Below, piece after piece: positions 7,799 through 50,187 of a DNA stretch of 64,000 nt. Position 1 is the first letter of the stretch, and every line of letters starts with the position of its first letter. The stretch lies in NCBI GenBank assembly GCA_030390025.1, contig CM059432.1:93374001-93438000 (forward strand), given 5' to 3'. A program made the translations under genes and the position numbers. This stretch comes from Squalus acanthias. Its lineage: Eukaryota. The notes below the pieces were generated by a model. That model saw only the letters and a program-made list of their open reading frames with translations, did not search any database and had not been told where the DNA came from.

Positions 7799-8786
7799 AC
7801 AAAAGCAAAATACTGCGGATGCTGGAAATCTGAAATAAAAACAGAAAATGCTGGAAATACTCAGCAGGTCAGGCAGCATCTGTGGAGAGAGAAACTGGAG
7901 TTAACGTTTCTGGTCGATGTCAGATTCTGATAAAAGGTCATCGACCAGAAACATTGGGCCAGAAATTCGGCTCCCTGGCTTCCCGCGGGTGCAAGGATCG
8001 CGCACCTACCTACCGCGCCTGCCGTTGACCTCTGGGCCCACGGGGACTTCGGGTCCTGGGCCTCCTGCAGCTGCCAGCGCGCAGTGCTTGTGTATCCCAG
8101 GGGCGTAGTTAGTGCGATGCGTCCCCTGGGATCACGTGGGCCATGGAGAGCCAATGGCAGCAGACCATCTTTCATTCATAGATTTGACAGGAAGATCTGT
8201 CAAATCTATGAATACAGATCGGCCCCAAAACATCCCTAAAACTGCAAATATTTTTTTTTAAAACATCACATTTTTAAAATAACTATAAATTACATTAATT
8301 AACTATTTTAAACAAAAATTTAAATTTTTTAAAAATTAATAAAATTTTTTAACAGGGCTAAAACTAAACTTGCCTTTCTTTAAAGTCATTAAAAAAGATA
8401 AATCTGTGAAAAAAATGTTTACATTTTAATAAAATCAACACTTACCTTGTTAAAAGAAGGTCTTGCGCATCCTTTTTAAAAGTGTATCTTCTCCGTGCTT
8501 ACCTTCACGGAGGAACCTGTAAAAAAATCCGAAGTGCGAGGTGAACGCGCTGGCCCTCCGGCGTGCGTGTTCGACCTCTGAACCCCTTTCCTCAGGGGAA
8601 CGGAAGTGCCGGTTTCCCGCGCATGTGCAGTGCATGCAAGAAACCGGCACTTTCGTTCCGTCCACGGGTGAGTACACAGTGCGTACTCACCCGACAACAG
8701 CCGAATTTCTGCCCCAGTAACTCTGTTTCTCTCTCCACAAAGGCTGCCTGACCTGCTGAGGATTTCCAGCATTTTCTGTTTCTATT
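7799..8786. mobile_element. Head-to-head inverted Penelope terminal-repeat fragments with a MITE inserted
   Basis: 7799-7920 is the minus-orientation terminal repeat. 7925-7955 plus 8716-8786 is the plus-orientation copy with a degenerate hammerhead. Confidence 0.7.
7956..8715 (+). mobile_element. Harbinger-type MITE, hairpin family copy 1
   Basis: 17-bp TIR GGGCCAGAAATTCGGCT/GGGGCAGAAATTCGGCT, imperfect 3-bp TSD (ATT/AGT), homologous to 28049-28811 and 49444-50187. Confidence 0.85.
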
Positions 8787-9149
8787 AAAACAGAGTCTTT
8801 GATGATTTAAAGCAAGACAGAGCTCAATCCATCACAGCAGGTACCCATAAATGCTCCTTGGATCCCGATTACAGTGGACGGCACAGTCAATACTGGGGGA
8901 GGGCACATGGGGAATACCCCTGGTTACTGAAATAATACCCCTGGGTACTGAAATATACCAATCAGTGGGAGACCTCATCCAGTGTTGAATAAAGTTGAGT
9001 ACGATCAGTGGCACAACTGTCAACAGAAAAAGGAGCTCCACCAAATGAATCTGGAACGAACAGGCAACCAACATTACACATCCATGAATGTCCATAGATG
9101 GTGTCATGGTTGTGACCCGGGCGCTCAGTTGCTGTGTGTGTTGTGTGCT

Positions 9150-9150
<1 letters not shown>

Positions 9151-9189
<39 letters not shown>
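9151..9189. repeat. (GT)n microsatellite
   Basis: Read directly from the sequence. Confidence 0.95.
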
Positions 9190-9190
<1 letters not shown>

Positions 9191-11210: not shown

Positions 11211-11609
11211 TGTATAGGGTATTGTTTGCTGGTGTGTTGCTTTGTGTGTGGAAACAGGGGTTCTTAGGATCCTTCTCTAAACTTTAAACCAATTTTAGCC
11301 CATGGCTCCATTTCTTCATATGTTTGGTGATGATGTGTAGTCTGCCATCATGAGCAGCAAATTTGCTTCTATAAACAGCAACCAAAATAATCTTTTTCTC
11401 TTAAAACACACAAAAGAAAAAAAGAGCAAGTTGCCTTGAAGCAGTTACATCTCCTGTGGGCTGAACACAACTCACTGAGCTTGTTCAGCCACTTTCTCTC
11501 CTCAAAGTACAAAAGACACGGGCCATATTTTCTTCTGTTTCATAATTATACCAAAAAGGTAGATGCAAGTAAAAAATGTGTAATGCCAGGAGAAATTGCT
11601 TCACACTAT

Positions 11610-12680
11610 GGCCGGAATTTTGGAGGTGGGTTCACTGTCAAAATCACAAAGATTGACAGCGGGTCAGTATCCCGCTGTAAAACCTGTCAGTTTCCCAAGT
11701 GTCGGGTCTGTCATCCCTGAACAGACCCGACACCAAGTGGCGGGTCAGCCAATTTAGATACTTAAAAGCTTGTTAAGTGCTATTTTCCATTTTACCAGGT
11801 TTTTAATGAGGTTCCCAGTATCGCGTCAGGCAAGTATTTTTTTTAAATTTATTTACAGGATGTGGGCGTTGCAGGCAAGGCCAGCATTTATTGCCCATCC
11901 CTAATTGCCCTTGAGAAGGTGGCGGTGAGCCACCTTATACAACTGAGAGGCTTGCTAGGCCATTTCAGAGGGCAATTAAGAGTCAACCCCAGAGTCACAT
12001 ATAGGACATTAGTGAACCAGATGGGTTTTTACGACAATCCAATAGTTTCATGGTCACCATTACTGATACTAGCTTTTTATTCCAGATTTATTTAATTAAC
12101 TGAATTGAAATTCTCCAGCTGCCGTGGTGGGATTTGAACTCATGTCTCCAGATCATTAGTCCAGGCCTCTGGATTACTAGTCTGGTACCCTAACCACTGT
12201 GCTACCGTACCCCATCGTGTTCTCAATGTCTCTCCATTGCTGTGAATAGGTGACAGCTGCAAAAGTGGTATAAAACCTACTATTACACAGCTGTTCACTT
12301 CCCAATCTTAGAAGCTGGAGCCTTCATGATTTGGAACCCACTTTTGAGCTTTATGCAGCTTGGAAGTGTTTGAAGTAAACTCTCTATCCACTGTCACCTC
12401 CTTAGAGCAACCTCTCTCCCCACTGACAGATCACTTCTGTCATCTCAGCTTCAGCTGCCATCTATTCCAGCAGCATCGGTGCCCTTAAAAAAAATCTCAC
12501 CTTGGTCCTCAGAATCCCACCACGATCAGCCCCAACACCAACATCACCAGGCACACCAGCAGCACCAACCTTCTCCGCAATCACCTGATGCTGCACAGGA
12601 CACAGGGTATCAACACCCAACCACATTGCTGCCCGGGTTGAGACAGGAGTGACTAGCGCAGTCCTAGCTATGTCTGCCTT
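11610..12680 (+). mobile_element. Degenerate Harbinger-derived element fragment, same family as 34889-36716, interrupted by a SINE
   Basis: Starts GGCCGGAATTTT. 11640-11770 and 12380-12640 align by eye with 34940-35100 and 35330-35610. Confidence 0.6.
11838..12212 (-). mobile_element. tRNA-headed SINE, second copy
   Basis: Revcomp head GGTAGCACAGTGGTTAGG...GAGTTCAAATCCCACCAC (A and B boxes), with the same body and tail as 541-980. Confidence 0.8.
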
Positions 12681-12836
12681 ATCGTGGGATATGTGGAACA
12701 TTCTTTGTTCCAGTCCTACTCAGGTCCCCTCCCTCACCTCTTTTTCCAGTACATTGATGACTGTATCTGTGCCGTTTCCTGCTCTCGCCCCGAATTGCAA
12801 AATTTAATCAACTTTGCTTCCAATTTCCATTCTTCC

Positions 12837-14443
12837 TGTAAAATTCGCAATTATCGCGATTCGAAATAACGAGATAAAGCAGATTCGTTTCATCAGTTTT
12901 ATTTCAACGAAATGCTGTCATGATTAAACAGGACACAGAAGCCTGTAAAATGGCCGCCGAGCATCGTGGCAGAAGCTTCCAGAATTTTCAGTGGGCAGAC
13001 AAGATGGCGTTCGAATAAACATTTCAGTATAAGATTGGTTAATACGCAGCAAACACTGATAAAGACAGGATGCAACCTGTCTGCATTCGACACAATGGCA
13101 AAGATATAAGTGCTGGAATCATTTTCCATGCACAAGTAAGGGCCATTGTAATGGGCAATCGAAGGCCCATCCAGATACGTCAATACGCAAATTCCCCACG
13201 GCTCTACAATGAGAGAGCCATTCTCGGGTGCTTACACAAGTATTCGGAGGCCCCCAAAACCCCGCCAGGGAGGCTCCTAGCCGGTTCGACAATGGGGAAA
13301 ATATTAACGGATAGTTGGCCAGTTTAAGGTGCTACCGAAACCCATTAAAGGAAAGAATCGCCCCATGCTGGGAGTTTTGTACACCAGTATTACACAAAGG
13401 ACAAACATCAAGATTTGGGCGGGAGATAAGGGAACACAGCACTATAACTATAGTGAACAAACGTCCATCGCGCTCTTATTCCTCTGATCCTCCCGGGGCT
13501 TATTCGTTTGAACTGACTCTTGACGCGGGCTGAACTTTTATTCTCCTATGTTGGGTGGAGCTCAATTTGGAACGAGTCGCCTCGACGAAGGCCAGTGACC
13601 GGGTGCACCATCCCGAGGGTCGGTAAACGGTGTTCTGGACCCGAAGGCCCGAAGAGACGAGACGAGACGAGAAGAGAAAAAGAAGAATCCACGTGCCGCC
13701 GCGGTCAGTAAACCCCGACCGTGCCCGAAAATATATAGACCATTTTTGAACTCTACAGGTTACTGCATGAACTGGTCAAAGACTCTTCTTTGAATTCTAC
13801 CGGCAAACGGTGTCGGACACAGGAAGACTCTTCTTCGAACCGGGCCCGAGCACTGTCGAGTTCTTCATGACAACGGGGAGCCCAGCCTGCTTGCAGCAGC
13901 AGCGAAAGTAAACAAGTGGGTTACAGAGACCCCTCAAAACACGTGACAGTCAGGCGCTGCAGCGAAACGAACCGAGTGCCTCGTTTAAAATTCTCCGAAG
14001 TATCACGAGTGGTGAGCATGTTTCCCGATCCTACAAATCTAGATTAGTGTAGGTATTGATAGGGGAGGGTGGTTTTTATTAAGGATAAATATAATGTGTT
14101 CCCCTTTTTACGATGTGCCGTGCGTTCCTCATTACCCTAGACCAAGTTTTATGAATGTATGTATACTTGTACTGTCATTAATTTGTGCCTATCACATGTA
14201 CTTCATGATTTTGGACGTTATGCAATAAAGATTTCCATTTCGTACTATTCAACCGGGTCTATTTGAGTTTTCTCTGCATTACTGCTCTCGCACCTAAGTC
14301 CAGTGTTAGAACCGTAAGGGCGAGTGGGTCGAACCACTCACAGGTGCTTATTGCAACAAGGCTGGCCGGAGACCAGAGCAAGCAATAGTATTAGGCAACG
14401 AAGGCCTAACCCCGCACAAGCACCCTGAACCGAACCCCTTACA
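12837..14443 (+). mobile_element. Solo LTR (about 1.6 kb) of an LTR retrotransposon or endogenous retrovirus
   Basis: TGTAA...TTACA termini, 4-bp TSD TTCC (12833-12836, 14444-14447), AATAAA near 14224, CpG-rich, no recognisable coding domain. Confidence 0.8.
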
Positions 14444-15651: not shown

Positions 15652-15688
15652 AGTTCTGACGAAAGGTCATCGACCTGAAACGTTAACT
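15652..15688 (+). ncRNA. Minimal type I hammerhead ribozyme motif
   Basis: AGTTCTGACGAAAGGTCATCGACCTGAAACGTTAACT, identical to the revcomp of 1218-1254. Confidence 0.75.
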
Positions 15689-18712: not shown

Positions 18713-20285
18713 TTAAAGCTCTGTTTATATATTAGAATGATACTGGTAGAATAAAATTGATAAAGCATAGCACACCTGCAGTATTAGACAAGTATTTAAT
18801 TTTTTCCTCAAATAAAATGTATCATTGAGAATATTTGAATCAGTAATATATATATATATATATATATAATATAATATATATATATTTTATAAAGGTAAGA
18901 GGTATTAAATAAGAATATTCTTGTCTTAAGCATATTTACAATATGTCAGCTCCTCCCTAAAACGTTAATATCTTTAAGAATTTTTAAAAAAGAAACCATA
19001 ATTTATAATTTTTGGTTACAAGTAGGAATAACATATTTATTCTATTTGAATGATTATATAGTGACTCTGTATCATTGTAAAATATAATTTGATAAACTGG
19101 ATACAAAACTGATTCTTGTGGGTTTTTTCAAAAAACTGTATTGTTCAAACTAAATTGTTAGGATGCTGTTTTAGTTTATTATATTACCAAATGAATTAAA
19201 AAAAATGAAAAATACAAGGTTTAAAGGGATTTCCCATCTGTGATGATTTTTTATTTTGCTTTTTTAAACATTTCATATTATGTCAAACCATTTGGTCTAA
19301 TTTTTCTTCTCAGACTTAAGATTAGAGTTCTGTTCAAGGAGGCAAAGGGTATATAACTGGGATGGTGGTAGGTATATGACTGGGAGCTGGTAATAAGCCT
19401 TATTATCGGAGATATCAAAAAGAGAGTTCTCCAAAAAAGGTAATTTAAAGACAGAAATATAACAACATAATGAAGTTTGGGGAAGAGGGACATTATGGGA
19501 CTGAGATGGGCTGTTCACACCTGGGAAAAGAAGAACAGCACAAAGCTGGGAGAGAATTTTTTTTTAATTCTCAGGTATAATGCCCCCCTTGGCTAACTAA
19601 GGAAGTAAAGGATGGTATCAAAGTGAAAACAAAAGCATACAATGTTGCGAAGAATAGTGAAAGGCCAGAGGATTGGGAAATTTTTAAAAAACAGCAAAGG
19701 ACAACTAAAAAAATGATAAAGAGAGAGAAGATAGCTTATGAGAGTAAGCTAGCATGAAATATAAATATAAAAAAGCTTCTACAGGTATATAAAAAGGAAG
19801 AGAGTAGCTAAAGTAAACGTTGGCCCCCTAGAGGATGAGTCTGGGGAATTAATAATGGGAAACAGGGAAATGGCAGAGACTTTAAACAAATATTTTGCAT
19901 CGGTCTTCACAGTAGAAGACACTAAGGGGGAAAAATTCAGTCGCGCCCCATTTGGGGCGCAAATATCGTCCGGGCGCAAAAATTAGCGCCTGGCGCTAAT
20001 TATCGCCACTGACTGGAAACTTCACTTTTAACGCCCCGGGAGGTGATTGGAGCGCTAAATCAGGCGCTGCACACCTGTCTTAAGGCGCAAAGGCCGAGGA
20101 GTGAGGCGCTAACTCAGAGAGTGAGCGCAGCGCAGGTGCTGCCAGTTAGCGAGGGAACACAGACACACTGGCGCCGGCCAGTTCTTAAAGGGGGGGGGGG
20201 CGATCTTGCTCCCCAGCCACACCCTGCTCATTGCAGCCTTGAATCTCGGCCTGGAGAGACCTGTGAATCCATTTTCCAGCCAAGG

Positions 20286-22129
20286 ATGGAGAGGGTGAGA
20301 GAACGAGCTGAGCGCTTCACCGAGCGGGCCTTGGATGCTCTGGTTGGCGCGGTGGAGCGCCGAAGAGCAATACTGTACCCAGAGAGTGGCAGGAGGCCTT
20401 TGCCGCGCGACTACAGAAGAGTGTGGAGGGAGGTGGCTCAGCGCGTCTCCTCCAGGAGCATGGTGCCCAGGACCCATGTCCAATGCCGGAAAAAGTTCAC
20501 CGACCTCACTCGGGTCATCAGGGTGAGTGGCTTTTTTGCAATACCTCTCCATCCCTCCATCTCAACCTCACTCTATGGCCAGAGGGTCTTAAAACCACAA
20601 TTAACAACATTCATCCAACACCTATGGCCCTTTCATGAAGCACACACACACATTCCATACTTTGCATACAGTAAGGGCTATTCACCTATGGGAGGCACAT
20701 CAGGCAAGACCATGGCTGTATACAGTAAGGGCTATTCACCTATGGGAGGCACATCAGGCAAGACCATGGCTGTATACAGTAAGGGCTATTCACCTATGGG
20801 AGGCACATCAGGCAAGACCATGGCTGTATATTTACTCAGACGCCGTCCTTTTTCTTGCAGGCCAAGCTGGTGCATAATAGGAGACAGCAGCAACGGACAG
20901 GTGGAGGGCGGCCTCAGCTGCAACCCCTCAGCGATCTTGAGGAGCGCGTCCACAGGATTGTGGCAAGCCGGGTGATCGGTCCCGTCACCACTGGAGACGC
21001 TGACCCCGTTCTGGACAGCAATGGTAAGGTCATCACCTTTTTGTCCTCTGTCCTTCCACTTGTCCCTCACAACACCAGCCTTTGACACTTTCAATCCAAC
21101 TTACTAACTCGCTGCACTTATTCCTCCCTTACTGCCACCCTGTCCTCACGCTAAAGCCACTCTTGTACCTCCCTGCTTTCAGATGGTGATTCACCAGCTG
21201 AGGAGACGGGCCCTGAAGCTGCCAGTGGGAGTGAAGCTGCAACCGAGGAGGAAGAGGAAGCCGGAGCATCAGTGCCACCCTCTCCCGAGGAAGCCCATGC
21301 CGACACTGGGAACACGCCTTCCCTGGAGGGGAGCAGGGGGGAAGGGTCTGATGAGGGTGAAGCTCCAGGACCCAGCGGGCTGCAGCAACGCGATGGGGGT
21401 AGGGAAGCTCGGGGGCCTTCTCCCCGGAGGGAGAGTATGCCAGCGAGTCCTGCTGCACTGGACGCAGAGGAGGAGCGGCTGATCGCAGAAATGAACACCC
21501 AGGCGGTGGGCATGCACACTGAGCTCATGGCTGCAGTGGGTAGGGTGCCCGAATGCATTGAAGCACTGGCAAGGAGTGTGGAGCACTTCGCTGCAGCGCA
21601 GGCGGATGCGACACTGAAGCTCAGTGCTGCAATTCAATCTCAGACTGCTCTCATGCAGACTCAGATTGAGGCCACGCGAGCACTGTCTGCTGCCATCCTT
21701 GCTGGTTCGTTCACATTTCCCCGGGGCTCTCACCGCGCCGCAGCAGGCCAGCAATCTGTGCTCCAGCAGATTGCTCCGGATGCTGAGGTGCTGCCCCGTG
21801 GGAGTGCCAGTGTGCCGGTCGAGCAGGGAGTTGCTGTCCTCGCTCAAGATGACAGCATTCCTGCTGCCACCACTGTCACTTCTCCACTGCAGTTGCCACC
21901 GCCTGTAGGACAGACTGCTGCCGCCCATGCAGAGTTGGTGCAGTCTGCAGCCGGGCCCTCCAGGCCCAGAACTGGTCGAGGCCGTCCCTCAAGGGCATCT
22001 GCATTGTCAGGGCCTGACAGTCAGCAGCCTTCCACCAGCCTTGCTGCAGCCACTGAGGTCCCATTGCGGAGGAGCAGTAGGGTAAGAAGGGGGGAAGGGC
22101 GCACGGTAAGGAGTTCACCCTCGATGTAG
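20286..22129 (+). CDS. Harbinger Myb/SANT-like DNA-binding protein; predicted exons 20286-20522, 20861-21023, 21183-22129 (448 aa)
   Basis: RF...L..LV...W.EVA.RVS...RT..QCRKKF.DL Myb/SANT-like motif, then TGGG. Donors GTGAGT (20523) and GTAAGG (21024), acceptors TTTCTTGCAG and CTGCTTTCAG. Phases 0 and 1 join into one 1347-nt open frame. Confidence 0.88.
20667..20830. repeat. Three exact 54-bp tandem units in intron 1 of the Myb-like gene
   Basis: TACAGTAAGGGCTATTCACCTATGGGAGGCACATCAGGCAAGACCATGGCTGTA at 20667, 20721 and 20775. Confidence 0.95.
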
Positions 22130-22512
22130 GAGGTGTGACAAAATGCTGGTCATTTTTTTATTAAAGGCCGAGGTTCGTGGTCAAACTTTTGTTGAGTGTT
22201 TTGCACATGATCTCCAGGTTGTGAGAACCAGTTATGGTAATGACTGTTTATTTGTGTTTATTTGTATGAGTTTGTCATGAAGAAATGACACACACAGAGT
22301 TTGTAAAATAAATAAGTTTTGGTACTCAAAATATACATGTTTGGTGTTCGGAATCATTGGTGCCTTGGCCGGCTTAGGGGTTGCGTGTTGGGTTCATTCA
22401 TGCTGTTCTCAATGGCAGAAGCCATTTCCACAGCAGGGGCCTAGAAGCGGCTTGCTATCAGCCGCTGATGGACGGCCCTTGCAGTTTCACCATTGTGGGC
22501 CGCCCTCACGCC

Positions 22513-23592
22513 TTAGTGCTGCTGCTGATCATCCTCCTCCTCCTCTTCCTCCTCCTCCTCTGGTGGTGCTCCAAGGCCTGGTGGCATTGGCTGGGTCCTG
22601 AGGATTGCCATGTTATGCAGCATGCAGCACACAACTACGATGTTGGAAACTCGCTCAGGCGAGTACTGCAGGGCTCCTCCAGAATGGTCGAGACAGCGGA
22701 ACCGTTGCTTGAGCACGCCAATTGTGTGCTCCACGATGTTCCTGGTAGCTTGATGGCTCTCGTTGTACCGCAGCTCAGCAGGGGTGTTGGGCGTACGGAG
22801 CGGTGTCATCAGCCAGGTGCTCAGTGGATACCCCTTGTCCCCAAGAAGCCAACCAACTGGCTGATGCGGTGCCTCGAAAAGTTCTGCCACAGTAGTCTGG
22901 CGCAGGATGAAAGCATCGTGGCAGCTGCCAGGATAGTGGGCATTGACAGCGAGTATCAGCTGTCTGTGGTCACAGACCAACTGAACATTCAAGGAATGGA
23001 ACCCCTTTCTGTTCCGGAAATCCTCGGCATTCTCATGCGGAGCACGCAAAGCCACATGCGTGCAGTCAATGGCGCCCTGCACCATGGGGAAGCCCGCTAT
23101 CCTCGCAAAGCCCAGAGTGCGTTTTTGCTGCTTGTCTGGGGTCATGGGGAAAGAGATGAACTCTCGTCTCCTTTTAAAGAGGGCATTTGTGACCTTCCGG
23201 ATGCAGCAATGCACCGCTAACTGGGAGATATTGGCGATGTCCCCAACAGCAGATTGAAATGAGCCAGTAGCATAAAAGTTCAGAGCCACTGTGACCTTCA
23301 CTGCCACCGACAGAGACGTCCTGGAACTCAGTTGAGGCTGCAGATCTGGCTGCAGCAGGTGGCAGAGCTCAGTGACCACCTCCTTGCTGAAGCGCAGCCT
23401 TCGCAGACACTGCTCCTCAGACATATGAATGTAGGAGAGCTGTTCACGATATACCCTGGGAGGGTAAGCTCTCCTGTAGAGACGCCTGTTGGCCCTCCTC
23501 CGTCTGGCCATCATTGCCACTCTCTCTCTGCGTCTCTGTCTCCTCCGATTCAGCTGGCGCAGGACGACGTCCCCCATCAGTGCAGCCCCCAT
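22513..23592 (-). CDS. Harbinger DDE transposase (HARBI1-family), 359 aa from first ATG
   Basis: Uninterrupted ORF with LRF, VALNFYATG, GAIDCTH, NRKGFHSLNVQ, PGSCHD, LLGDKGY and RNIVEHTIGVLKQRFRCL motifs, plus an acidic tail. Confidence 0.95.
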   Translation of the reverse strand: MGAALMGDVVLRQLNRRRQRRRERVAMMARRRRANRRLYRRAYPPRVYREQLSYIHMSEEQCLRRLRFSKEVVTELCHLLQPDLQPQLSSRTSLSVAVKVTVALNFYATGSFQSAVGDIANISQLAVHCCIRKVTNALFKRRREFISFPMTPDKQQKRTLGFARIAGFPMVQGAIDCTHVALRAPHENAEDFRNRKGFHSLNVQLVCDHRQLILAVNAHYPGSCHDAFILRQTTVAELFEAPHQPVGWLLGDKGYPLSTWLMTPLRTPNTPAELRYNESHQATRNIVEHTIGVLKQRFRCLDHSGGALQYSPERVSNIVVVCCMLHNMAILRTQPMPPGLGAPPEEEEEEEEEDDQQQH

Positions 23593-25970
23593 ATCTCTTA
23601 GCAAGCAAAGTTATGAAGGCCAGAAACCAAAGTACCAGCGAAGTTAGGATGAGTAGCCAAAACTACCTCACACAGCGTTGACTCAATGCAGAAGTCTCTC
23701 TTTCTCTCTCTCCGAATCTCTCTCTCTCTCTCAGAACGAGTGGTGCAAAAATGTCCACCACAGAGAAAGACAGGAAGAGGCCCCCTTTAAATAGCGCCCC
23801 CCCCAGCCCCACAGCGATTGATAGCGTTCCACTCTACCGATCGTTGGATGCGCCAGGCGGTAAGGATGGGGGCGCCACTGAAATTCTGCTCCGGGGCGCC
23901 ACAAGGGCATTGCACTCTCGTATGACGTCACAATCTGCGCGCGCAGGAGATCGCGGCGATAAAGTTTAGCGCCGCCGCAAAATGTCTAGTTAAGTTCGCG
24001 AGCGGTGCAAACATTGCTGTGCCCAGGCGCTAGCTGCTTTGCGCCCCATTAGCGCCCTCTTAAGGCGCTAACGGGAGGCGCAACCAACTGAATTTTTCCC
24101 CCTAAAAGCATCCCAATAATGGATAATCAAGGGGCTATTGGGGTGGGGGGGGGGGGGAACTTAAAACAATCACTATCACTAGAGAGAAAGTACTAGGCAA
24201 ACTAATGGGACTAAAGGTGGACAAGTCCCCTGGACCCGATGGCCTGCATCCTAGAGTCTTAAAAGAGGTGGCTGCAGAGATAGTGGATGCATTGGTTGTA
24301 ATCTACCAAAATTCCCTGGATTCTGGAGAGGTCCCAGCGGACTGGAAAACCGCAAATGTAACGGCCCTGTTTAAGAAAGGAGGGAGACAGAAAGCAGGCA
24401 ACTATCGACCAGTTAGCCTAACATCTGTCATTGGGAAAATGCTGGAGTCCATCATGAAGGAAGTGGTAGCAGGACATTTAGAAAATCATAATAGTCAAGC
24501 AGAGTCAGCATGGTTTTATGAAAGGGAAATCATATTTGACAAATTTGCTGGAATTCTTTGAGGATGTAATGAGCAGGGTGGATAAAGGGGAACCAGTAGA
24601 TGTCGTGTATTTGGATTTCCAGAAGGCATTCGATAAGGTGCCACATAAAAGGTTACTACACAAGATAAGAGCTCACGGGGTTGGGGGTAATATATTAGCA
24701 TGGATAGAGGATTGGCTAACTAACAGAAAACAGAGAGTTGGGATAAATGGGTCAATTTCAGGTTGGCAAATTGTAACTAGTGGGGGGCTGCAGGGATCAG
24801 TGCTAGGGCCTCAACTATTTACAATCTATATTAATGACTTGGATGAAGGGACTGAGTGTAATATAACCAAATTTGCTGATGATACAAAGATAGGTGGGAA
24901 GGCAAATTGTGTGGAGGACGCAAAGAATCTCCAAAGGGATATAGATAGGCTAAGTGAGTGGGCAAAATTCTGGCAGATGGAGTTTAATGTGGGAAAATGC
25001 CAGGATATCCACTTTGGTAGGAAAAATAAAAAAGCAAATTATTATTTAAATGGGGAGAGATTACAAATGCTGAAGTACAGAGGGATCCTTGCACATGAAT
25101 CACAAAATGTTAGCATGCAGGTACAACAAGTAATTAGGAAGGCAAATGGAATGTTGGCCTTTAATGCAAAGGGAATGGAGTATAAAAGTAGGGAAGTCCT
25201 ATTACAACTGTACAGGGCGTTGGTGAGACCACACCTAGAGTACTGCATACAGTTTTGGTCTCCTTATTTAAGGAAGGATATACTTGCATTGGAGGCAGTT
25301 CAGAGAAGGTTCACTAGGTTGATTCCGGAGATGAAGGGGTTGTCTTATGAAGAAAGGTTGAGCAGTTTGGGCCTATACTCATTGAAGTTTAGAAGAATGA
25401 GAGGGGATCTTATTGAAACATATAAGATTCTGAAGGGGCTTGACACAGTAGATGCAGAGAGGATGTTAATAATTCCCTCGTGGGGGAATCTAGAACTAGG
25501 GGACATAATTTCAGAATAAGGGGGCACCCTTTTAAATCAGAAATGAGGAGGAATTTCTTCTCTGAGGGTCGTGAATCTCTGGAATTCTCTTCCTCAGGGA
25601 GCTGTGGAAGCTGGGTCATTGAATATATTCAAGGTGGAGATAGACGGATTTTTCAAAGGTAAGGGAGTCAAGGGTTATGGGGAGCGGGCAGGGAAGTAGA
25701 GCTGAGGCCAAGATCAGATCAGCCTACATCTTATGATCTTGGTATAGCAAGAGTTGGACTAATTCTCAAATGCCACAATATAACATTGGCAGAGTTATGC
25801 CATTTTTCAGTAGGAGGAATAACTTGGCGATGCACACAAAGTAAGTTAGGGTGATGGCAAATATGACTCCCAGGAATTTTTATTCCAGAGAGATCATCTT
25901 GACATGAATTAAAAGCAAACTTCACAGGGCTATAATATTAAAACAGAAACAAATCACATTAAAATACAAC

Positions 25971-26410
25971 GGGGGAAAAATTTGGTTGATTTGCGCCCTA
26001 AGAGGGCTAATGGGGCACAAAGCAACTAGCGCCTGGGCGCGGCGCGACTAACGCCGCCCGCAAAATTTAGTGGGAGGTTAGCGGCGGTGGTAAGTGTTAG
26101 CGCCCCGCGCGGCCGGCAATGACGTCATCGCCATGCGCAGCACCCTGGCCTCGATCTTCGGTAGCGCCCCGGCCGCGATCTTCGGTAGCGCCCCCTGACT
26201 TACCACCGGACGCTATGTCCGACGGGGTCAGGGGGGCGTACCTACGGCCAGGGCGGCGCAAATTAAAGGGAAGGTGCCGGGTGGCCATTTTCATTGCTGG
26301 CCGCCTGCCAGCATCTACCCGCTTTGCCGTCCCCGGCCTTCTGTGAAGCCCCCCCACCCCCCGCAGAGTATCGGCTGCGCTCCGTGAGCCCGGCACTTCT
26401 CTTTTGCCAG
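25971..26410. mobile_element. Truncated Harbinger-type MITE related to 63374-63953
   Basis: Starts GGGGGAAAAATTTGGTTGATTTGCG with TTAGCGCC-type subterminal motifs. No second terminus found. Confidence 0.7.
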
Positions 26411-27356: not shown

Positions 27357-28048
27357 TCTCCTTCGCTTGTCATTGTCTCAGGCTGAACCAGACTGAACAT
27401 CCTCAGTATACTGTTAAACTTTGAATTAAGCTTCCAATTCTATATCCTCTCTATGACAAAGCTCGCTGCCAACTCTGTAAAATTGGCCACCTCTGCTACT
27501 ACCCCAGCCCATCAGCTACTGAATCCCTCATACCTATCTTTGTTACCTCCAGTCTCAGTTACTCCAATTCTCTCCTGACCAGCCGCTACAGAGTGTAACA
27601 AATGACATTTATTTTAACATTTTGAATTTAACTTAGAATTTTAAAAACTGTAAAATAAACGGTAGTTAACAGAAACTGCCTGCCAGTGGCAGTTAACTGT
27701 CAATCAGCTGTAAGTGTTACTCTGAATAGGCGCTAATTACTGTGAGCAGGAAACTGAGTCAACACTTGCAACTTGGGTGTGGCTCAAAGGTGTATACAAG
27801 TAAACAGTATCTGCTGACACACTGAGTGTCTTAAATGGAGTGCACTTACACAGAGTGTGAAAGTTGGGAATTTGGAGAGAGTGGGAAGGAGGTGCTGCTT
27901 TTGCCTCAAATACTTGTAGTGGTTTGTGTTACAGGTAAATATTTAATTTAATCTACCTATAACTTAAACTAGATCTCATAATTAGTTAAAAGGTTATATA
28001 GGGATGGCAGCGCAGGTGGTGTGCCACAACTGCAGCATGAGAGATATT

Positions 28049-34862: not shown

Positions 34863-34888
34863 GCATGCCAGGGGATTTCAGAAACACC

Positions 34889-36716
34889 GGCCAGAATTTT
34901 GCCGGCGCTCAGAGGGTGGGTTTCGAGGTGGGTCCGCTATCAAAATAGCAAAGATTGACACCGGGTAGGAAACCCACCGTCATCCCACCTCCACGCAATT
35001 CTCCCAGGTGTCGGGTCTGTCAGTGGAGAACTGACCCGACACCAAGCAGTGGGGAAGACAATTGAGCTCATTAAATGGCTTGTTAACAGCCAATTTAATG
35101 CTATTTTGAGGCTACCTTGCAATTTTATGTCCTCCCCCATGGGTTACCTGCTGCTCGGGGAACACGCCAGCTCACCCTGGCGTGTTTTGAGTCTGCTCTG
35201 ATGTTTCTGATAAGTTGACAGCTGCAGAAGTGGTGTAAAGGATGCCATGTTGCAGATGGTCAGTTTCAGAGCGCAGAAAATGTTGGTTACTGCATTTGTA
35301 ATACAGATAGAGATTTCTTCAGCTTGCAAGTGTTTAGAGGCAACTGTATGTCCAGTGCCACCTCATTGGAACAACCTCTCTCACCATTGACAGATTGCTT
35401 CTGTCATCTCACCTGCAGCTGCCATCTATTCCAGCAACATCGGTGCCCTTGAAAAAAAAAATCAGACCTAGGTCCTCCGAATCCTTCCACGATCAGCCCA
35501 AACACCATCATCACCAGGCACACCAACAACATCACCAACCTTCTCTGCCATCACCTGATGCTGCACAGGACGCAGGGTATCAGCCCCTGACAACATTGCT
35601 GCCCGGGAGGCCAGCGATGGCATCACCATGGCCAGACTTACTTCACTTGACGCTGTAAACCCTGGCTTCCACATGATGCACCAGGTTAACACCATCCCAC
35701 ACCAGCACCATAAAGCACCCCTTTAATGTCCAAGCCATTCCATGCACACTCAGCACTATAGTTGGGGGGCGGGGAGGGGGGGGGGAGGAGAGTTATGTTT
35801 CAACATTCACTGGAACTCAGTAAGACACTTCTCAAGGTGTGCACAGATCTGTCCAATAAGGGATAGTGTTGAAAATATAGATTTCACTGTATGACAACAC
35901 ATTACCAGAAACTTCACATGAACATTGGCTAAACCTCTCAAGTACCTACCCTTGTGTGTTGTTAGTTGGTATTCTTGCAGTAGGATGAGGGTGGTATGCT
36001 TGCAGAAGGATGAGGGTAAGTGTGAGGGGTGGCTACTGAGATGGGGAAGTGATAATGTCGATAGAGGGGGTTGGGTGGAGGTGCAAGGTAAGTTGGTGTG
36101 AGTAAGGATGTACAGGAGAAGGGTATGGAAGGCAGAGTGATGGGGCTGTGTTGAGTGGCACAGCAGGGTGAGTTTGAGTGTGGCTTTGCAGTAACGTTTC
36201 GTGATCCACTGAGATCATTGAAAGGTTGGCGCCACTGCAGCCAGGGACCCCCGACGATATCCCTGCTTTTGCCCTCCTGTGCAATGTGCAAACAGGCTGC
36301 GTTGGTGTCCTGGGGAGGTGTCTTCCGCCCTTGGAAGGGAAGAGAACCTCCCTGTGTGCTGTGACTCCCTCCATAAGCATATGGAGGGAGTCATTGGAGA
36401 GCCTGGGCGCAAGCGTCCACCTTTGTGCAGTGCTCGTCAGTGGTTGTAGCACCTCAATGCTGTCAAACACTGACAGAACAACTGTCAAACTCAATGTGGT
36501 CCGTGGTCCCTTTAAGTAAACCGGCTGATGATGCGTCATCAAATGACGTCATTAGACCCGCTTCCTATTAATTGGCCAGGAACCCTGCAGGGCGGGCTTA
36601 ACAAGGCCAATCAATGGAAAATCCCTTTGACAGAGCGACTGCAGCTGGGAGCGGGATTGGAACCCGGAAACCAGCTCTCCCGCCACCATCCCGACACCGC
36701 TGAGAAAATGCAGCCC
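34889..36716. mobile_element. Degenerate non-autonomous Harbinger with Myb/SANT-like remnant
   Basis: Imperfect termini GGCCAGAATTTT/GGGCTGCATTTT. Minus-strand remnant APRLSNDSLHMLMEGVTAHREVLFP...WLQWRQPFNDL. Splits the RTE reading at MPGDFRN|..VTIFKKGD. Confidence 0.72.
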
Positions 36717-37357: not shown

Positions 37358-38183
37358 GGGCTCGATTTTCCAAGCCCCATGGAGGCGGGTTTGGAGGCGG
37401 GAGTGGTGGGAAAATTGCAGATTCGGGGGGCACGTACCCATCCCGCCTCCATGCCAATGTCCCAGGAGGCGGGTACCCGACCTGTGCTGGGAGCCGCCTT
37501 CCCGAGGCGGGAAGGGGATTAGTGCCAATTAACTGCCTGTTAACAGGTAGTTAACGGGCAGTTTTTTGGCTAATCCCTATTTTTAGCCCTGAAGTGTGGG
37601 CTGCCCGACGGCTCCAAACCACGCCAAGTTAGCAAGGTGGACCGTCGGTCTGCAGGGGTCAAGATGTCTGGTGTACAGGTGAGTGATGGGTGCATGAGTG
37701 CAGAGGTAAGTGCGTTTGGTGTGTGTATAAAGTGTTTTAATAAGTTTTACTTACCTTTTCTTTCTCCTCCAGGCTTCCTCCCTTCAGTTCTTGGGAGTCC
37801 CTCAGCTCACCAGCACAGAAAGCAGAATGGCCGCTGAACTGTCAAAAGCTGCAACCTCTGCTTTCTGGTCTGGAGAGCTCTCTAACTGAGTCTGAGTAGA
37901 AGGACTCAAGTTAGAAGACAGATTGTCAGTGTTTGTCAGCGTCACAGAGCTGTCAAACGCTGATATTTCATCTGTCAAAAGCTCTTGACAGATGAAATGT
38001 CAATCGCTAACGTCACCAGTATCCAGGTGTCCCTTAATTGGCCTGCTAAGCCCGCTGGGCGGGCTTAATAAGGTCAATCAAGGGAAAGTAGCGTGGGTTG
38101 GCCACAAATTGATGGAGGCGGGACTACAACCCAAAAAGTGGGAGTCCCGCCTCCATCACGTCCCCTTTGACAAAATCGAGCCC
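37358..38183. mobile_element. Harbinger-type MITE, distinct family
   Basis: Perfect 12-bp TIR GGGCTCGATTTT and TCA TSD. Removing it restores RTE VCTHS|ESELQ. Confidence 0.9.
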
Positions 38184-41100
38184 TCAGAGTCCGAACTCCA
38201 AACCATCGTTGACTCCTTCACTGAAGCGTACGAGAGACTGGGCTTTACACCAAACATCCGAAAGTTCTTTACCAACCTGCCCCGCCGCACAACACTGCCC
38301 CCCGACTGTCAAAATCCATGACGAGACCTTGGATAGTGTGGACCACTTTCCATACCTTGGGAGTCTTCTGTCAACAAGGGCGAACATCGATGTCGAAATC
38401 CAGCAGTGTGCCAGTGCAGTCTTCAGCCACCTGAGGAAAAGAGTGTTTGAAGACCAAGACCTCAAACCCGGCACCAAGCTCATGGTCTACAGAGCAGCAG
38501 TGATACCCGCCCTCCTGTATGCTTCAGAGACATGGACAATGTACAGTAGGCACCTCAAAGCACTGGAGAAGTATCACCAATGCTGCTTCCGCAAAATCCT
38601 GCAAGTCCATTGGCAGGATAGGCATACCAATGTTAGTGTTCTCTCTCAGGCCAACATCCCCAGCATTGAGGCATTGATCACACTCAATCAGCTCCGATGG
38701 ACGGGCCACATTATCCGCATGCCTGATACAAGACTCCCAAAACAAGCACTCTACTCCGAGCTCCGTCACGGCAAGCGATTTCCAGGAGGGCAGGGAAATC
38801 GCTTAAATGACGTTCTCAACGTCTCCTTGAAAAAATGTAACAGCCTCATCGCCTCTTGGGAATCCCTGGCCCAAGACCGCTCAAATTGGAGGAGAAGAAT
38901 TCGAGAAGGCGCCGAGCACTTTTGAGTTTCTTCGTCGGGAGCACGCGGAGGCCAAGTACAAACAGCGGAAGGAGCGTATCACAAACCAAGCACCCCACCC
39001 ACTCATCCCTTCAACCACTACCTGCCCCACCTGTGGCAGAGTCTGTAGATCCCGTATAGGACTCTTAGTCACCTTAGAACCCAAAATATTGAAGTGGAAG
39101 CAAGTCATCCTCTTCTCCAGGGGACTGCCTAAGAAGAAGTATTACATTAAAAGAGAGGTTTATAATGGAGAAAAATAGTAGTAGAAGACACAAAAGGCAT
39201 ACCAAAACTGGTGGGGAACCAAGTGGTTAATGAGATTGAGGAACTTAAAGTAATTAAGATCAGTAGAGAAAAAGTACTTGAGAAACTAATGGGACTAAAA
39301 GCTGACAAATCCCCTGGACCTGATGGCCTTTATCCCAGGGTTCTAAAAGAAGTTGCTGCAGAGATAGTGGATGCATTGGTTGTGATCTTCCAAAATTCCA
39401 TAGATTCTAGAACGGTCCCATGGTAGCAAATGTAACCCCGCTATTCAAGAAAGGAGGGAGAGAAAATAGGGAACTACAGGCCAGTTAGCCTGACATCATT
39501 CATCAGGAAAATGCTGGAATCCATTATTAAGGAAGTGGTAACAGGGCACTTAGAAAATCATAATATGATTAGACAGAGTCAACATGGTTTTATGAAAGGG
39601 AAATTGTGTTTAACAAATTTATTAGAGTTTTTTTGAGGATGTAACTAGCAGGGTAGATAAAGGAGAACCAGTGGATGTAGTATATTTGGATTTCCAAAAG
39701 GCAATGAGGTGCCACATAAAAGGTTGTTACACAAGATAAGGGCTCATGGGGTTGGGGTGATATATTAGCATGGATAGAGAATTGGTTAACGACAGAAAAG
39801 AGAGTAGGGATAAACGGGTCATTTTCCGGTTGGCAGGCTGTAACTAGTGGGGTGCTGCAAGAATCAGTGCTTGGGCCTCAGCTATATATAATCTATATTA
39901 ATGACTTAGATGAAGGGACCGAGTGTAATGATCCCAAGTTTGCTGACGATGCAAAGCTAGGTGGGAAAGTCAGCTGTGAGGAGGACGCAAAGAGCCTACA
40001 AAGGGATATCAACAGGTTAAGTGAGTGGACAATAAGTTGGCAGATGGAGTATAATGTGGGGAAATGTGAGGTTATTCACTTTGGTAGGAATAGAAAAACA
40101 GAATTTTTTTTACATGTTGAGAAACTATTAAATGTTGGCGTTCAGAGAGATTTAGCTGTCCTTGTACAGGAAACACAAAGTTAGCATGGAGGTGTAGCAA
40201 GCAATAAGGAAGGCAAATTGCATGTTAGCCTTTATTGCAAGGGGGTTGGAGTACAAGAGTAAGGAAGTCTTGCTACAATTTTACTTTGGTGAGACCACAT
40301 CTGGAGTACTGTGCACAGTTTTGGTCTCCTTATCTAAGGAAGGATATACTTGCCTTAGAGGCAGTGCAACAACTGTTCACTAGATTGAATCCTGGGATGA
40401 GAGGGTTGGCCTGATGAGGAGAAATTGAATAGATTGGGCCTATACCCTCTGGAGTTCAGAAGAATGAGAGGTGATCTCATTGAAACATACAAGATTCTGA
40501 GGGAAATTGACAGGGTAGATGCTGAGAAGTTGTTTCCCCTGGCTGGAGAGTCTAGAACTAGGGGGCATAGTTTCAGGATAAGTGGGTCTGCCATTAAAGA
40601 CCGAGACGAGGAGGAACTTCTTCACCCAAAGGGTTGTGAATCTTTGGAATTCTCTACCCCAAAGGGCTGTGGACACTGAATCGTTGAGTTTATTCAAGGC
40701 TGAGACATAGATTTTTGGACTCTATAGGTATCAAAGGATATGGGGATCGGGCGGAAAAGCGGAATTGAGATCAAAGATCAGCCATGATCTTTTTGAATGG
40801 CAGGGCAGGCTCGAGGGGCTGTATGGCCTACTTCTGCTCCTAATTCTTATGTATTTGTGTTCTCCCAATCTCCAAAAACGTTAGATTATTCAAAACTCCA
40901 TACCGACGTCACTGGCCTACATTGGCTCCCGAAGGTATTTTAGCCCTCAAAATGAGTATGGTCTTGGATTTTTGATGTCTTCATGGATCATTTTGTTTTT
41001 GGAGAAAGCTGGGTTCATGCTTCCTTTAGCCCTACCTTGTGATAGAACCAGGTGGACAATGAAAACGGCCAAGGATTCTTCCCTACCCATTCCTAAATAA

Positions 41101-45679: not shown

Positions 45680-46080
45680 GGACTCACTTGGCTTATCACT
45701 TCCTCAAAGAAGTCGAATAGATTGGTTATGCAGGATCTACCCCTTCTGAATTCATGCTGACTGCTGTTAACTTGATTGTACATATGATCCTTAAATTTAC
45801 TCCCGATAATCCAATATTTCACATGGTATCGAGTTGAGCCTAATGGGTCTGCAATTGCCTACCTCGGATTTGTCATCCTTCTTGAATATAGACTCTCTAT
45901 TAGCTTTTTTCCAATCTACTGCTAGTCCCCCCTCTCCTCCCACCACCAACCCCCTGTTTACAGTGATTCCTTTATAATCATCACCAGTACCTCAAAATCA
46001 TCTCCCGAGTCTCTCTCAGCACTCTGGGATAATTACCACCTATTCCTAGGAATTTGTTTTGAGCCCATTTAGCTAGTCTA
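45680..46080 (-). mobile_element. Old CR1 RT fragment
   Basis: SQHEFRRGRSCITNLFDFFEEV remnant. Confidence 0.6.
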
Positions 46081-46494
46081 GGACCTCATTTACAAAAAAG
46101 TCACTGATTTTACTTGGAATCTTTATACAATGTTCTGTTTGACAAAGAAATACTTCTGGATATGGCTCTATGATGCCTTTATTCTTCAGTATTCATCTAA
46201 AAAATACATTTGTAATTAAAAAGAAAGAAAAAGATTTGTTTAAAGTGCTATGCAATGGTTGCTTTTATTTGGAGCTGCAATGCTCACATGTTTAAGGTGA
46301 GACACTGAAATATGGACATTTCTTCATTTGGCCTCGGCTCTCAAAACCCTTTACTACTCACTACTTTTAGTTGACCGTGGAGGTGTGGGGGGTTGTTCCC
46401 GTCATATTTGAGGAAATAAAACATGGAATGATGAAAGGTCCTTTGACCCATCAAGTTTTACTTATCCTCTCGCTGCAGCAGCAGCAGCAGCAGT

Positions 46495-47180
46495 GAGAGG
46501 ATAAAGAGCAGCTCGAGAGTGGACCTGAATTAAAGCAGCGGCAGCAGCGAGAGGATAAAGAGCAGCCCGAGAGTGGACCTGAATTAAAGCAGCGGCAGCG
46601 GCGAGAGGATAAAGAGCAGCCCGAGAGTGGACCTGAATTAAAACAGCGGCAGCAGCGAGAGGATAAAGAGCGGCCCGAGAGTGGACCTGAATTAAAGCAG
46701 CGGCAGCAGCGAGAGGATAAAGAGCAGCTCGAGAGTGGACCTGAATTAAAACAGCGGCAGCAGCGAGAGGATAAAGAGCGGCCCGAGAGCGGACCTGAAT
46801 TAAAGCAGCGGCAGCGGCGAGAGGATAAAGAGCGTCCCGAGAGTGGACCTGAATTAAAGCAGCGGCAGCAGCGAGAGGATAAAGAGCAGCTCGAGAGTGG
46901 ACCTGAATTAAAGCAGCGACAGCGGCGAGATGATAAAGAGCGTCCCGAGAGTGGACCTGAATTAAAGCAGCAGCAGCGGCGAGAGGATAAAGAGCGTCCC
47001 GAGAGCGGACCTGAATTAAAGCAGCGGCGAGAGGATAAAGTGCAGCCCAAGTGTGGACCTGAATTAAAGCAGCGGCGAGAGGATAAAGTGCAGCCCAAGT
47101 GTGGACCTGAATTAAAGCAGCGGCGAGAGGATAAAGAGCAGCCCAAGTGTGGACCTGAATTAAAGCAGCGGCAGCAGCGA
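46495..47180. repeat. Minisatellite of about 13 units (54 and 48 bp) directly upstream of CR1 ORF1
   Basis: Unit GAGAGGATAAAGAGCAGCCCGAGAGTGGACCTGAATTAAAGCAGCGGCAGCAGC. Starts every 54 bp from 46495 to 46981, then at 47029, 47077 and 47125. Confidence 0.95.
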
Positions 47181-49443
47181 GGCTCCGATTCAAAAACAAC
47201 AAAAAAATTCAAGAGTGACGTCACAGGAGAGCAGGTAGGTGATTTGTTGCTGAGTATTCCAGCTTTTTTTTGCTCTCTAAGTTAGAGAAGGGGGTTAAAT
47301 TAAGAGCTGAGAAACTGTAACGTGCTAGTACATATTTAATTAATAACAAATTAATAACTTAAACGAGATAATATAATCAAACAATAAAACGAAAATATCA
47401 ATTGAATAATAGCTTTAACTAATTAATGAATAAATAAAACAAGGTTAGAGGTGGCAGGGCAGGCGGTGTGTCGTAACTGCAGCATGTGGAAGCTTGTGGC
47501 GAGCATCGCGATCCTGAGCAACCACATCTGCAGTGACTGCAACTCGAGGAACTTCGGCTCAGAGTTGTTGAGCTGGAGTACAAGGTGCAGACATTGCGAT
47601 GCAACAGGGAGGGCGAGAGTTACCTGGATACAGTCACACCCTTTAGGTTAAGTAGTACTTTCATCAGTGGTCAGGGGCAGGAGGATGTGACTGCGAGTCA
47701 GGCATGTAGTGATGGAGGAGCCTCAGCCCTTGACCTTGTCCAACAGGTACGAGGTACTTGCTACCTGTATGGATGAGGAAAAGGACTGCAGGGAGGATGG
47801 GCAAACTGGCCACGACACCGTGGTACAGGGGGCCATCCAAGTGGGGGGGAGAAGGATGGAATGTGGTAGTATTAGGGGACAGTATAGTCAGAGGGATAGA
47901 TACTGTTCTCTGCAGCCACAAGAGTCCCGAAGGCTGTGTTGCCTGCCCGGTGCCAGGGTTAAGGATATCTCCTCGCGGCTGGAGAAGAAATTGGAGTGGG
48001 AGGGGGAGGATCCAGTTGTCGTGGTCCATGTAGGAACCAACGACATAGGTAGAACGAAGAATGAAGTTCTGCTGAGGGAGTTTGATGAGCCAGAGTCTAA
48101 ATTCATAAGTAGAACCTCAAGGGTAATAATCTCTGGAGTACTAACTGAGCCACGTGCAAATTGGCATAGGGTCAAGCAGATCAGAGAGTTAAATGCGTGG
48201 CTCATAGAGTGGTGTGGGAAGAAGGGGTTTCAATTCATGGGGCACTGGCACCAGTACTGGGGAAAGAGGGAGCTGTTCCGTTGGGACGGGCTATACTTAA
48301 ACTGGGCTGGGACCAGCATCCTGGCGAATCGAATAACTAGGGCTGGAGATAGGGCTTGAAACTAAAAAAGGGAGGGGGGGGGGGGGTCAGGTGAGGGGAT
48401 ATTTAGAAATATGAAGAGAAAGGTCAAGGCAATAGAGAAGTGTAGCGATTTGGATAAAAATAAGCAGAGTGTGACAGGAAGGGACAGAGAGTTTAACAGT
48501 AGCAGTGCTGCAGAGAATAAGGTCAAAGCAGGGAATAATGGTAAAAAATTAAATTAAAGGCTCTTTATCTGATTGCATGAAGCATTCTTAACAAGATAGA
48601 CGAACTAGTGGCACAAATAGAGATAAATGGGTTTGATCTAATAGCCATTACAGAGACCTGGTTGCAAGGTGGCGAAGGTTGGGAACTAAATGTTCCAGGG
48701 TACTTGACGTTTTGAAAAGACAGGCAGAATGGAAAAGGAGGGTGAGTAGCCCTGATAATAAAGGATGACATAAGGACAGTAACGTGAAAGGATCTCGGCT
48801 TGGAAGATCAGGAAGTAGAATCAGTATGGGTGGAGATAAGGAATAACAAGGGACAGAAAACACTGGTGGGAGTAATATATAGGCCCCCTAACAGTAGCTA
48901 TACCGTTGGACAGACTATTAATCAAGAAATAGTAGAAGCTTGTAACGAAGGTAATGCAATAATCGTGGGGGACTTTAATCTTCATGTAGACTGGACAAAT
49001 CAAATTGGCAAAGGTAGTCTGGAGGACAAGTTCCTGGAATGCATTTGGGACAGTTTCCTAGAACAATGCGTCATGGAACCAACCAGGGAACAGACTATTT
49101 TAGATCTTGTATTGTGTAATGAGCCAGGGTTAATTAGAAATCTCATAGTAAAGGATCCTCTGGGGCAGAGAGATCATAATGTGATAGAATTTCACATTAA
49201 GTTTGAGAGTAACTTGCCTAGGTTCGAAACTTGAGCCTTAAACTTAAATAAAGCCAATTAAATAGGTATGAGGGGCGAGTTGGCTAAGGTAGATTGGAAA
49301 ATTAGATTAAAAGGTATGGCGGTAGATAAGCAGTGGATAGCATTTAAAGAAATATTTCATAATTCTCAACAAAAATACATTCCATTGAGAAACAAAAACT
49401 CCACAGGAAAAGTGATCCATCCTTGGCTAACTAAAGAAACATT

Positions 49444-50187
49444 GGCCCAGAAATTGATCTCGCTCTGTTCCCGCGGGGGTAAGCCTTTCCCGCGATGTCT
49501 CACCTCGCTTATGCTTTTTCTGATCCAGCTCGCACGAAATTGATGTTCCAGACATCAGCTGTGCTGGGCTTGCGTATCCCAGCGGCGTAGTTAATTCGTG
49601 CGAGCTGTGGGATCACGTGACTCAGTTAGAGCCAATGGCAGCACACCATCTTCCATTCATAAGTCTCACAGCATGGCTGAGAGACTTATGAATCTTACAC
49701 CCCCCCAAAATAACAGCTAAACCTCAATTAAATTTAAAAAAAAAACCATCACATTAATAAAATAAGTATAGTTAATTAAATTAACCATTTTAAATAAAAA
49801 ATTAAATTTTTGAAAAAATTTAAAATCTTTTAAAAAGTTATAAAAATAAACTTACCTGTCTTTAAAGTCTATAAAAAAGATATACCTGTAAAAAAAAATT
49901 CAAAAAAATACTTAATTCACTACTTACCTTCTTAAAAGCGGGTCTTACTCCTCCTTTTTACATTTCCAAAATCTTCAGTACTTACCTGCGCGTCCAAAGC
50001 ATGAAGTGCACAGCGTGCGCGCAGCCTGTAGCGCGCACGCGATGCACTCAGGCCCCGCCCCCTTTTCGGAAGAGCAATTGCCGGTTTTCAGCGCATGCGC
50101 AGGGCATGCAGAAAACCGGCAATTGGAGTGGGAATACGCGAGAGTATGCAGTGCGTACTCTCGCGTCCCGGGATCAATTTTCGGCCC
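49444..50187 (+). mobile_element. Harbinger-type MITE, hairpin family copy 3
   Basis: TIR GGCCCAGAAATTGATC/GGGCCGAAAATTGATC and ATT TSD on both sides. Confidence 0.9.

Follow-up and report, generated by a model that had tools for sequence, protein, structure and literature searches.

The 64,000-nucleotide window analysed here (Squalus acanthias, contig CM059432.1 of assembly GCA_030390025.1, positions 93,374,001 to 93,438,000 of the forward strand) harbours three copies of a Harbinger-type MITE (short for miniature inverted-repeat transposable element), hereafter c1, c2 and c3, which all lie in the same orientation (Table 1). The copies share five local hairpins, and in these hairpins as well as in the terminal inverted repeats (TIRs) the pairing is kept while the arm sequences change in compensating pairs. 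These covarying hairpins are a real and statistically supported feature of the MITE, for which copying of one arm from the other at the level of DNA is put forward below as a tentative explanation.

Anatomy and classification of the element

The three copies are 744-763 bp long, with pairwise identities of 70% (c1/c2), 66% (c1/c3) and 81% (c2/c3). BLAST of the copies against the window returned no additional full or long partial copy and, together with the alignment coordinates, bears out the three copies of about 750 bp and their starts as reported in a preliminary description of the stretch. All three are bounded by imperfect TIRs of 16-17 bp starting with GG, and none contains an open reading frame of at least 150 amino acids; one stop-free minus-strand frame (49975-50775) crosses the right end of c3, coming from the flanking long interspersed nuclear element (LINE). 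The target site duplication (TSD) is ATT in all three left flanks, and the unequal flanks of c1 may be read as an ATT duplication plus one later change. Of the public-contig joints, 15 of 22 are listed, and four of those listed represent empty sites of c2 with space for exactly one ATT.

The family is very abundant: in one public run (X1) 24,067 contig pieces matched c2, and 20 of the 22 listed runs, from several organisms, contain part of the MITE, neither figure being a copy number. Exact-pattern scans for further copies found no loci in metagenome contigs and none in viral contigs. One contig of run X1 joins position 28812 to 28048: the right end is linked back to the left with three letters in between, an arrangement like that of a tandem dimer or of a circle junction.

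Table 1. Copies of the MITE, their hairpins and motifs, and the genes of the Harbinger element in the window
Feature	Position	Strand	Details
MITE copy c1	7956-8715	+	flanks ATT 7953-7955 and AGT 8716-8718
MITE copy c2	28049-28811	+	TSD ATT/ATT; host sequence a LINE-like repeat
MITE copy c3	49444-50187	+	TSD ATT/ATT; host sequence a CR1-like LINE
c1 left TIR	7956-7972		partner 8699-8715; 16/17 paired; inner bases 13-15 CGG
c2 left TIR	28049-28064		partner 28796-28811; 14/16 paired; inner bases 13-15 AAA
c3 left TIR	49444-49459		partner 50172-50187; 13/16 paired; inner bases 13-15 GAT
Hairpin D	c1 8091-8136; c2 28188-28232; c3 49573-49617		2/16 pairs changed on both sides
Hairpin A	c1 8174-8213; c2 28270-28309; c3 49655-49693		4/17 pairs changed on both sides
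Hairpin E	c1 8531-8578; c2 28627-28676; c3 50003-50050		3/18 pairs changed on both sides
Hairpin B	c1 8597-8659, including longer outer stem		4/22 pairs changed on both sides
Hairpin C	c1 8665-8693; c2 28755-28795; c3 50136-50166		2/12 shared pairs changed on both sides
AT-rich core	28330-28560 (approximate)		outside counted helices; 29% of 226 columns vary
Putative E-box (CACGTG) and CCAAT-box-like motifs	28229-28252	+	kept in all three copies
Putative E2F-like and NRF1-like motifs	c2 28073 (E2F-like), 28715 (NRF1-like)		kept in copies
Three presumed 5' splice-donor consensus sites	c2 28465, 28537, 28595 (28465-28602)	-	ACTTACCT on +
Myb-like gene of Harbinger 19926-24102		+	PF13873; short tandem triplication near 20662-20830; Myb exon 20861-21023
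DDE_Tnp_4 frame of Harbinger 19926-24102, 365 aa	22513-23610	-

With respect to classification, the TIR type, the 3-bp TSD with empty sites, the small size, the lack of coding capacity and the multiple copies all agree with MITEs of the PHIS or PIF-Harbinger kind, whose TIRs are mostly shorter than 60 bp with A or G as the first base (PMC4482050). The TIR is identical at 9 of 12 positions to that of the transposase-coding Harbinger at 19926-24102 (DDE_Tnp_4 plus Myb-like gene), although no internal similarity between the two elements was found. Judged by these sequence features, the element is a non-autonomous PHIS/Harbinger-type MITE, so that the Harbinger identity proposed beforehand held up on TIR likeness, TSD length and empty sites. 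The ATT duplication departs from the TWA target site of the narrow-sense PIF/Harbinger group and fits the ANT rule of the Pangu group instead (Han et al. 2015, PMC4482050). That group is further defined by the clade of its transposase and by a second ORF lacking known motifs, so that assignment to it would need a transposase, and the MITE codes no protein. In the neighbouring Harbinger family, one copy has a TAA duplication and another TTT, and the TSD may therefore be of limited value as a class marker here.

The insertion sites (flanks 7949-7955, 28042-28048 and 49437-49443 together with the right flanks) match the pattern A-N-N-Y-[TSD]-R-N-N-T completely in two of the three copies, c2 being without the last T. 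Copy c1 is located within a palindromic repeat (7797-7955 and 8719-8790), directly after a motif in 7797-7955 that resembles, with one mismatch, what we take to be the hammerhead core consensus.

Conserved hairpins and compensated pairs

The preliminary description had named three hairpins, A, B and C, and the coordinates given for them all match; the count did not stand, as two more (D and E) are shared by the three copies and the inner TIR bases covary as well. Hairpin A forms 17 perfect pairs in c1, has one T.G in c2, and in c3 consists of 13 pairs, one A.A and then further pairs. The cores of hairpin B lie at 8604-8652 (c1), 28703-28745 (c2) and 50075-50125 (c3). Hairpin C has 17 perfect pairs in c2, 11 in c1 and 11-12 in c3. 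Hairpin E is the weakest helix (81.5% paired), and a shifted register pairs better in c1. The hairpins are not placed symmetrically about the centre of the element. When the six hairpin-bearing segments were folded as DNA, z-scores ranged from -3.5 to -8.3 against 200 dinucleotide shuffles each, none of which folded as well for five of the segments and two of which did so for the remaining one. RNAalifold additionally pairs the two ends of the element.

The counted structure consists of 101 pairs in six stems, namely the five hairpins and the TIR pair, and thus of 303 cells over the three copies, of which 92.4% are paired. As many as 19 of the 101 pairs have changed on both sides; four of them belong to the TIR and the others are spread across all five hairpins (Table 1), whose arm sequences are dissimilar. 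None of 500 shuffles reached 19 double-changed pairs, and when the partners were slid by 1-3 columns just 1-6 such pairs were counted. At the inner TIR bases 13-15, which read CGG, AAA and GAT in c1, c2 and c3, respectively, all nine positions are matched by a partner about 740 bp away. CpG decay accounts for only 4 of 17 pair-breaking cells. With respect to overall variability, 30% of the 202 arm columns vary, as compared to 52% of the 306 other columns outside arms and AT-rich core.

Because the 101-pair structure was derived from the very sequences on which it was tested, a train/test design was used, in which pairs were trained on one copy and scored in another against the expectation of independent substitution. 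All six comparisons among the MITE copies, which are not mutually independent, gave an excess of compensated pairs (p 0.0005-0.039; 50 observed vs 17.8 expected, or 2.8-fold), and the outcome was the same in all six with RNA folding parameters. The controls lack such covariation: none of 24 comparisons among LINE copies reached p < 0.05 (49 observed vs 36.1 expected), and neither did any of 20 among other Harbinger ends (8 observed vs 13.0 expected), which contain fewer pairs and therefore give less power. As the LINE controls exceed their expectation, the null appears to be about 1.4-fold too lenient, the excess in the MITE being twice as large. Together with the shuffle counts, the train/test results support the conclusion that structure is kept while the arm sequence changes, in agreement with what had been claimed from the sequence beforehand.

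Contigs of four public runs aligned to c2 provide a further view of the variation, in unphased tables of which 40 of 170 variant rows are considered here; 11 of these fall in or adjoin a counted helix. In run X1, two partner pairs of hairpin A vary at like shares (28287 G>C 16% and 28292 C>G 20%; 28278 T>A 58% and 28301 G>T 51%), and in run X19 the partners 28699 and 28749 reach 63% and 94%. At three sites where c2 carries a pair-breaking letter, the majority letter in X1 pairs (28646, 72%; 28710, 99.6%; 28746, 70%). The C at 28228, which pairs with the G at 28191, is nearly private to c2, and an adjacent mismatch is left unrepaired; for one of the 19 double changes, the second step may therefore have taken place while a single copy was at rest.

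Arm-to-arm copying as a possible mechanism

Among the causes offered in the preliminary description, correction of one arm by the other gives the best fit, as far as can be inferred, while a functional RNA did not fare well given the lack of strand bias, the equal folding of both strands and the absence of an Rfam match (see below). The explanation put forward here is that the arms change together by arm-to-arm copying via template switching in transposing lineages, which we consider quite possible, if a little short of an even chance. From the three phased copies we infer both the copying step and the place where the copying would happen, and also that selection would not be the main cause. 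According to this proposal, the non-autonomous MITE would depend for its movement, in trans, on a DDE transposase together with a Myb-like partner, and would become transiently single-stranded either on the lagging strand or during gap repair following excision. A stem might then fold, or a strand might switch template, such that one arm is rewritten from the other and a fresh mutation in one arm is either erased or copied into the partner arm. Transposing lineages would hand the double changes to all their copies, resulting in subfamilies distinguished by compensated pairs, whereas in single copies at rest it is mostly pair-breaking changes that would accumulate.

According to published work, template switching can produce both compensatory changes and extended stems in the absence of selection (PMC5453318, PMC8794818), and stem extension along with multiple compensatory changes is regarded as its signature (PMC8794818). 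Stems of this kind can be found in two copies: hairpin C of c2 has five more perfect pairs than that of c3 and six more than that of c1, with a right flank unlike theirs, and in hairpin B of c1 six uninterrupted Watson-Crick pairs follow a G.T, whereas pairing in this part of c2 and c3 is patchy. Both extensions would fit a folded nascent strand that was extended along its own left flank. Changes in hairpin A and in the TIR are clustered, but with three copies neither these nor the extensions can be assigned to branches.

A number of observations weigh against arm-to-arm copying. By inspection, no loop inversion, the strongest sign of a template switch, is present in the loops of hairpins A, B and C in the three copies, although such inversions are rare in ribosomal RNA (rRNA), too (PMC8794818). 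The TIR ends are 740 bp apart and thus exceed the local switches of tens of bases described in PMC5453318, TIR positions 6-7 are mismatched in c2 and c3 despite the compensated pairs nearby, and in hairpin D of c2 an A.A adjoins a changed pair. Neutral copying does not predict that the arms vary less than the spacer (30% vs 52%), bearing in mind that the arms were chosen as shared, and a general mutational process should also affect the other Harbinger ends, which contain palindromes, yet show no excess of double changes (at the low power of that comparison). In run X1 the partners 28699 and 28749 have unequal shares (1.4% and 10.9%), and 28673 T>C (50%) disrupts an aligned pair, the 40 rows containing no change at its partner; the C at 28673 is also present in c1, which folds hairpin E in a different register. 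Finally, transitions make up 8 of the 17 double-changed pairs with two pair types, as compared to 35-40% in the background and 37-47% expected for two hits, so that an origin in one step is not separated from an origin in two.

Alternative explanations

The pairing might instead be selected at the level of DNA, with cruciforms or single-stranded stems and an extended TIR pairing aiding excision, end synapsis or gap-repair amplification, and with only those lineages multiplying that keep their pairing; template switching may then supply the changes which selection retains, and indeed arm copying and DNA-level selection can act together. As the principal cause, such selection appears rather unlikely to us, even though several observations speak for it: the majority letter pairs at sites where a single copy lacks pairing, the AT-rich core and the arms are less variable than the remaining sequence, the excess of double changes belongs to this MITE family and not to other Harbinger ends, the positions of the hairpins are constant over 19-34% divergence, and strand-neutral mismatches suit a DNA structure. 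On the other hand, the hairpins are asymmetric about the centre and the TIR core tolerates mismatches, and the available parts of PMC2836001 and bioRxiv 10.64898/2026.05.26.728016 describe no hairpin requirement for PIF/Harbinger transposition but the binding of a Myb-like protein to terminal and subterminal DNA. A more specific form of the idea is doubtful, namely that amplification of the MITE proceeds through folded, single-stranded DNA, and that in this intermediate the five hairpins and the stem between the two TIRs would form and be either needed or read. The same binding of element ends by a Myb-like protein in this superfamily (PMC2836001, bioRxiv 10.64898/2026.05.26.728016) could also suggest that the palindromes are inverted sites for the Myb-like partner, the transposase or host factors, both half-sites of which shift when a subfamily adjusts to another autonomous partner. 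In line with this, the palindromes in the autonomous Harbinger of the window consist of one octamer that is present 3-6 times per segment, the inner arm parts are invariant, and both TIR ends must suit one enzyme. However, each of the five stems has its own sequence, covariation is absent from the motif-built palindromes of the other families, and there is no GC-containing 7-mer or 8-mer that is found three times in every copy; the one 8-mer with three occurrences (in c2 and c3) is the splice-donor motif. This makes inverted binding sites very improbable. For this MITE, the idea that one recurrent binding motif gave rise to the palindromes was rejected for want of such a shared GC-containing 7- or 8-mer.

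Selection of the stems as RNA would require that they be transcribed, either from promoter relics (within a non-coding RNA or within the leader of the genes of the parent element) or to yield small RNAs. The motifs which we take to be E-box, CCAAT-box-like, E2F-like and NRF1-like lie at both ends and, like the three minus-strand sites presumed to be splice donors, are kept in all copies (the latter at 49850, 49922 and 49980 in c3 and at about 8368, as a GC variant, 8440 and 8497 in c1); motifs and donors together may be what is left of a non-coding first exon of the parent and of its two promoters, which would have faced inwards. Contig pieces of the element also come from two runs whose RNA nature is a guess (780 and 934 pieces), and contigs do not reveal the strand; none of the listed runs is recorded as RNA, which carries no information on expression. 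DNA transposons, though, move without an RNA step, and none of the 15 listed joints begins at one of the donors. Wobble-type mismatches show no strand bias (G.T 16 vs A.C 13 cells, p 0.71, small n), RNA folding z-scores are similar for both strands in five of the six segments, and at gathering score none of the 4227 families of Rfam 15 matches the window. Nine of the 17 double-changed pairs with two pair types are double transversions, which cannot pass via G.U, the difference from the 61% of transition-type changes in rRNA being not significant (one-sided p 0.18); both the strand and the transition tests are small. The RNA explanation is thus without positive support and has to be regarded as improbable. 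That the double changes are merely effects of chance or alignment, as might be feared with just three sequences, helices picked from these same sequences and LINE controls 1.4-fold above the null, is highly improbable in view of the 2.8-fold train/test excess in all six comparisons, the few double-changed pairs in the slid controls and the two partner pairs that vary at like shares in independent contigs.

Other elements in the window

The window as a whole is repeat-rich DNA of vertebrate type, 47% of which lies under self-similarity, with CR1-like LINE frames containing endonuclease and reverse transcriptase domains. The Harbinger at 19926-24102 is near-complete and has a TAA duplication and two convergent genes (PF13359, E 4.9e-42; PF13873, E 9.8e-09), the Myb-like one being likely spliced. 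An inverted internal-deletion derivative of it, with ends 87% identical and TTT flanks, resides at 1908-2800. Relatives are found at 25971-26403 and around 63375-63955, and a single repeated octamer makes up the palindromes of derivative and relatives.

A further MITE-like element (37359-38185) has hairpins at 37965-37998 and 38110-38158, a cassette of splice-donor- and splice-acceptor-like motifs near 37680-37775, and a related right end at 36420-36716. The MITE-like left ends at 11608-11800 and 34887-35110 are related to each other (73% identical) and share a hairpin (11699-11733 and 35007-35043), with no covariation seen between them in the train/test comparison. A tandem array at 46374-47181 consists of 54-bp and then 48-bp units and is open in several frames, and a unique stretch within a LINE-like repeat (approximately 12818-14344) looks by eye like an insertion of the long terminal repeat type. 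The search for host exons gave one weak candidate (19314-19440), in which a pyrimidine tract is found together with a 24-codon open frame ending in a stop.

Relation to known systems and implications

The element resembles Tourist-like or PIF-Harbinger MITEs such as mPing and Harbinger3N_DR in being short and non-coding, in its GG-starting TIRs and 3-bp TSD, and in its high copy number, but differs from Tourist-like MITEs by ATT in place of TWA and by the five local hairpins and the TIR bases that change in compensating pairs. Secondary structures of MITEs have been predicted before, for Tourist and Stowaway elements (PMC5172404), and template switching as well as the binding of Myb-like proteins to the ends of Harbinger elements is likewise known. 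For the Angel MITE, a model has been proposed, as retold in PMC5172404, in which the nascent strand folds back at an A-rich centre and primes synthesis on itself; Angel is fully palindromic and the model explains amplification, whereas the element described here combines short TIRs with local hairpins that are separate from one another, and it is the matching of the arms that is in question. Also close are the cases of template switching (Loytynoja and Goldman 2017, PMC5453318; Monttinen and Loytynoja 2022, PMC8794818), which share the compensatory changes and the stem extension without selection on RNA. These studies deal with mutation clusters between human and chimpanzee and with microRNA and rRNA genes, in contrast to six stems in one mobile element, where one pair of arms is separated by 740 bp and loop inversions are not seen. 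Searches of open papers listed no report of hairpins or TIR bases that covary in a Harbinger MITE, and there was nothing on arm matching in the available parts of PMC4168063, PMC8151067 and PMC9179366; the family may already be catalogued in Repbase or Dfam.

Covariation is usually taken as proof of a functional RNA structure, and a very abundant DNA transposon in which six stems covary without strand preference would cleanly illustrate how this signal can arise at the level of DNA. The many dated copies of such a family make it testable whether compensatory pairs arise in one copying step or via mismatched intermediates, and whether selection is needed or not. If an amplification via a folded intermediate were true, a nominally cut-and-paste element would be selected for DNA secondary structure over its whole length, including ends that are 740 bp apart. 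If pairing is needed for mobility, a structural step would be added to the amplification of Harbinger MITEs, and this would bear on the high copy numbers that MITEs attain.

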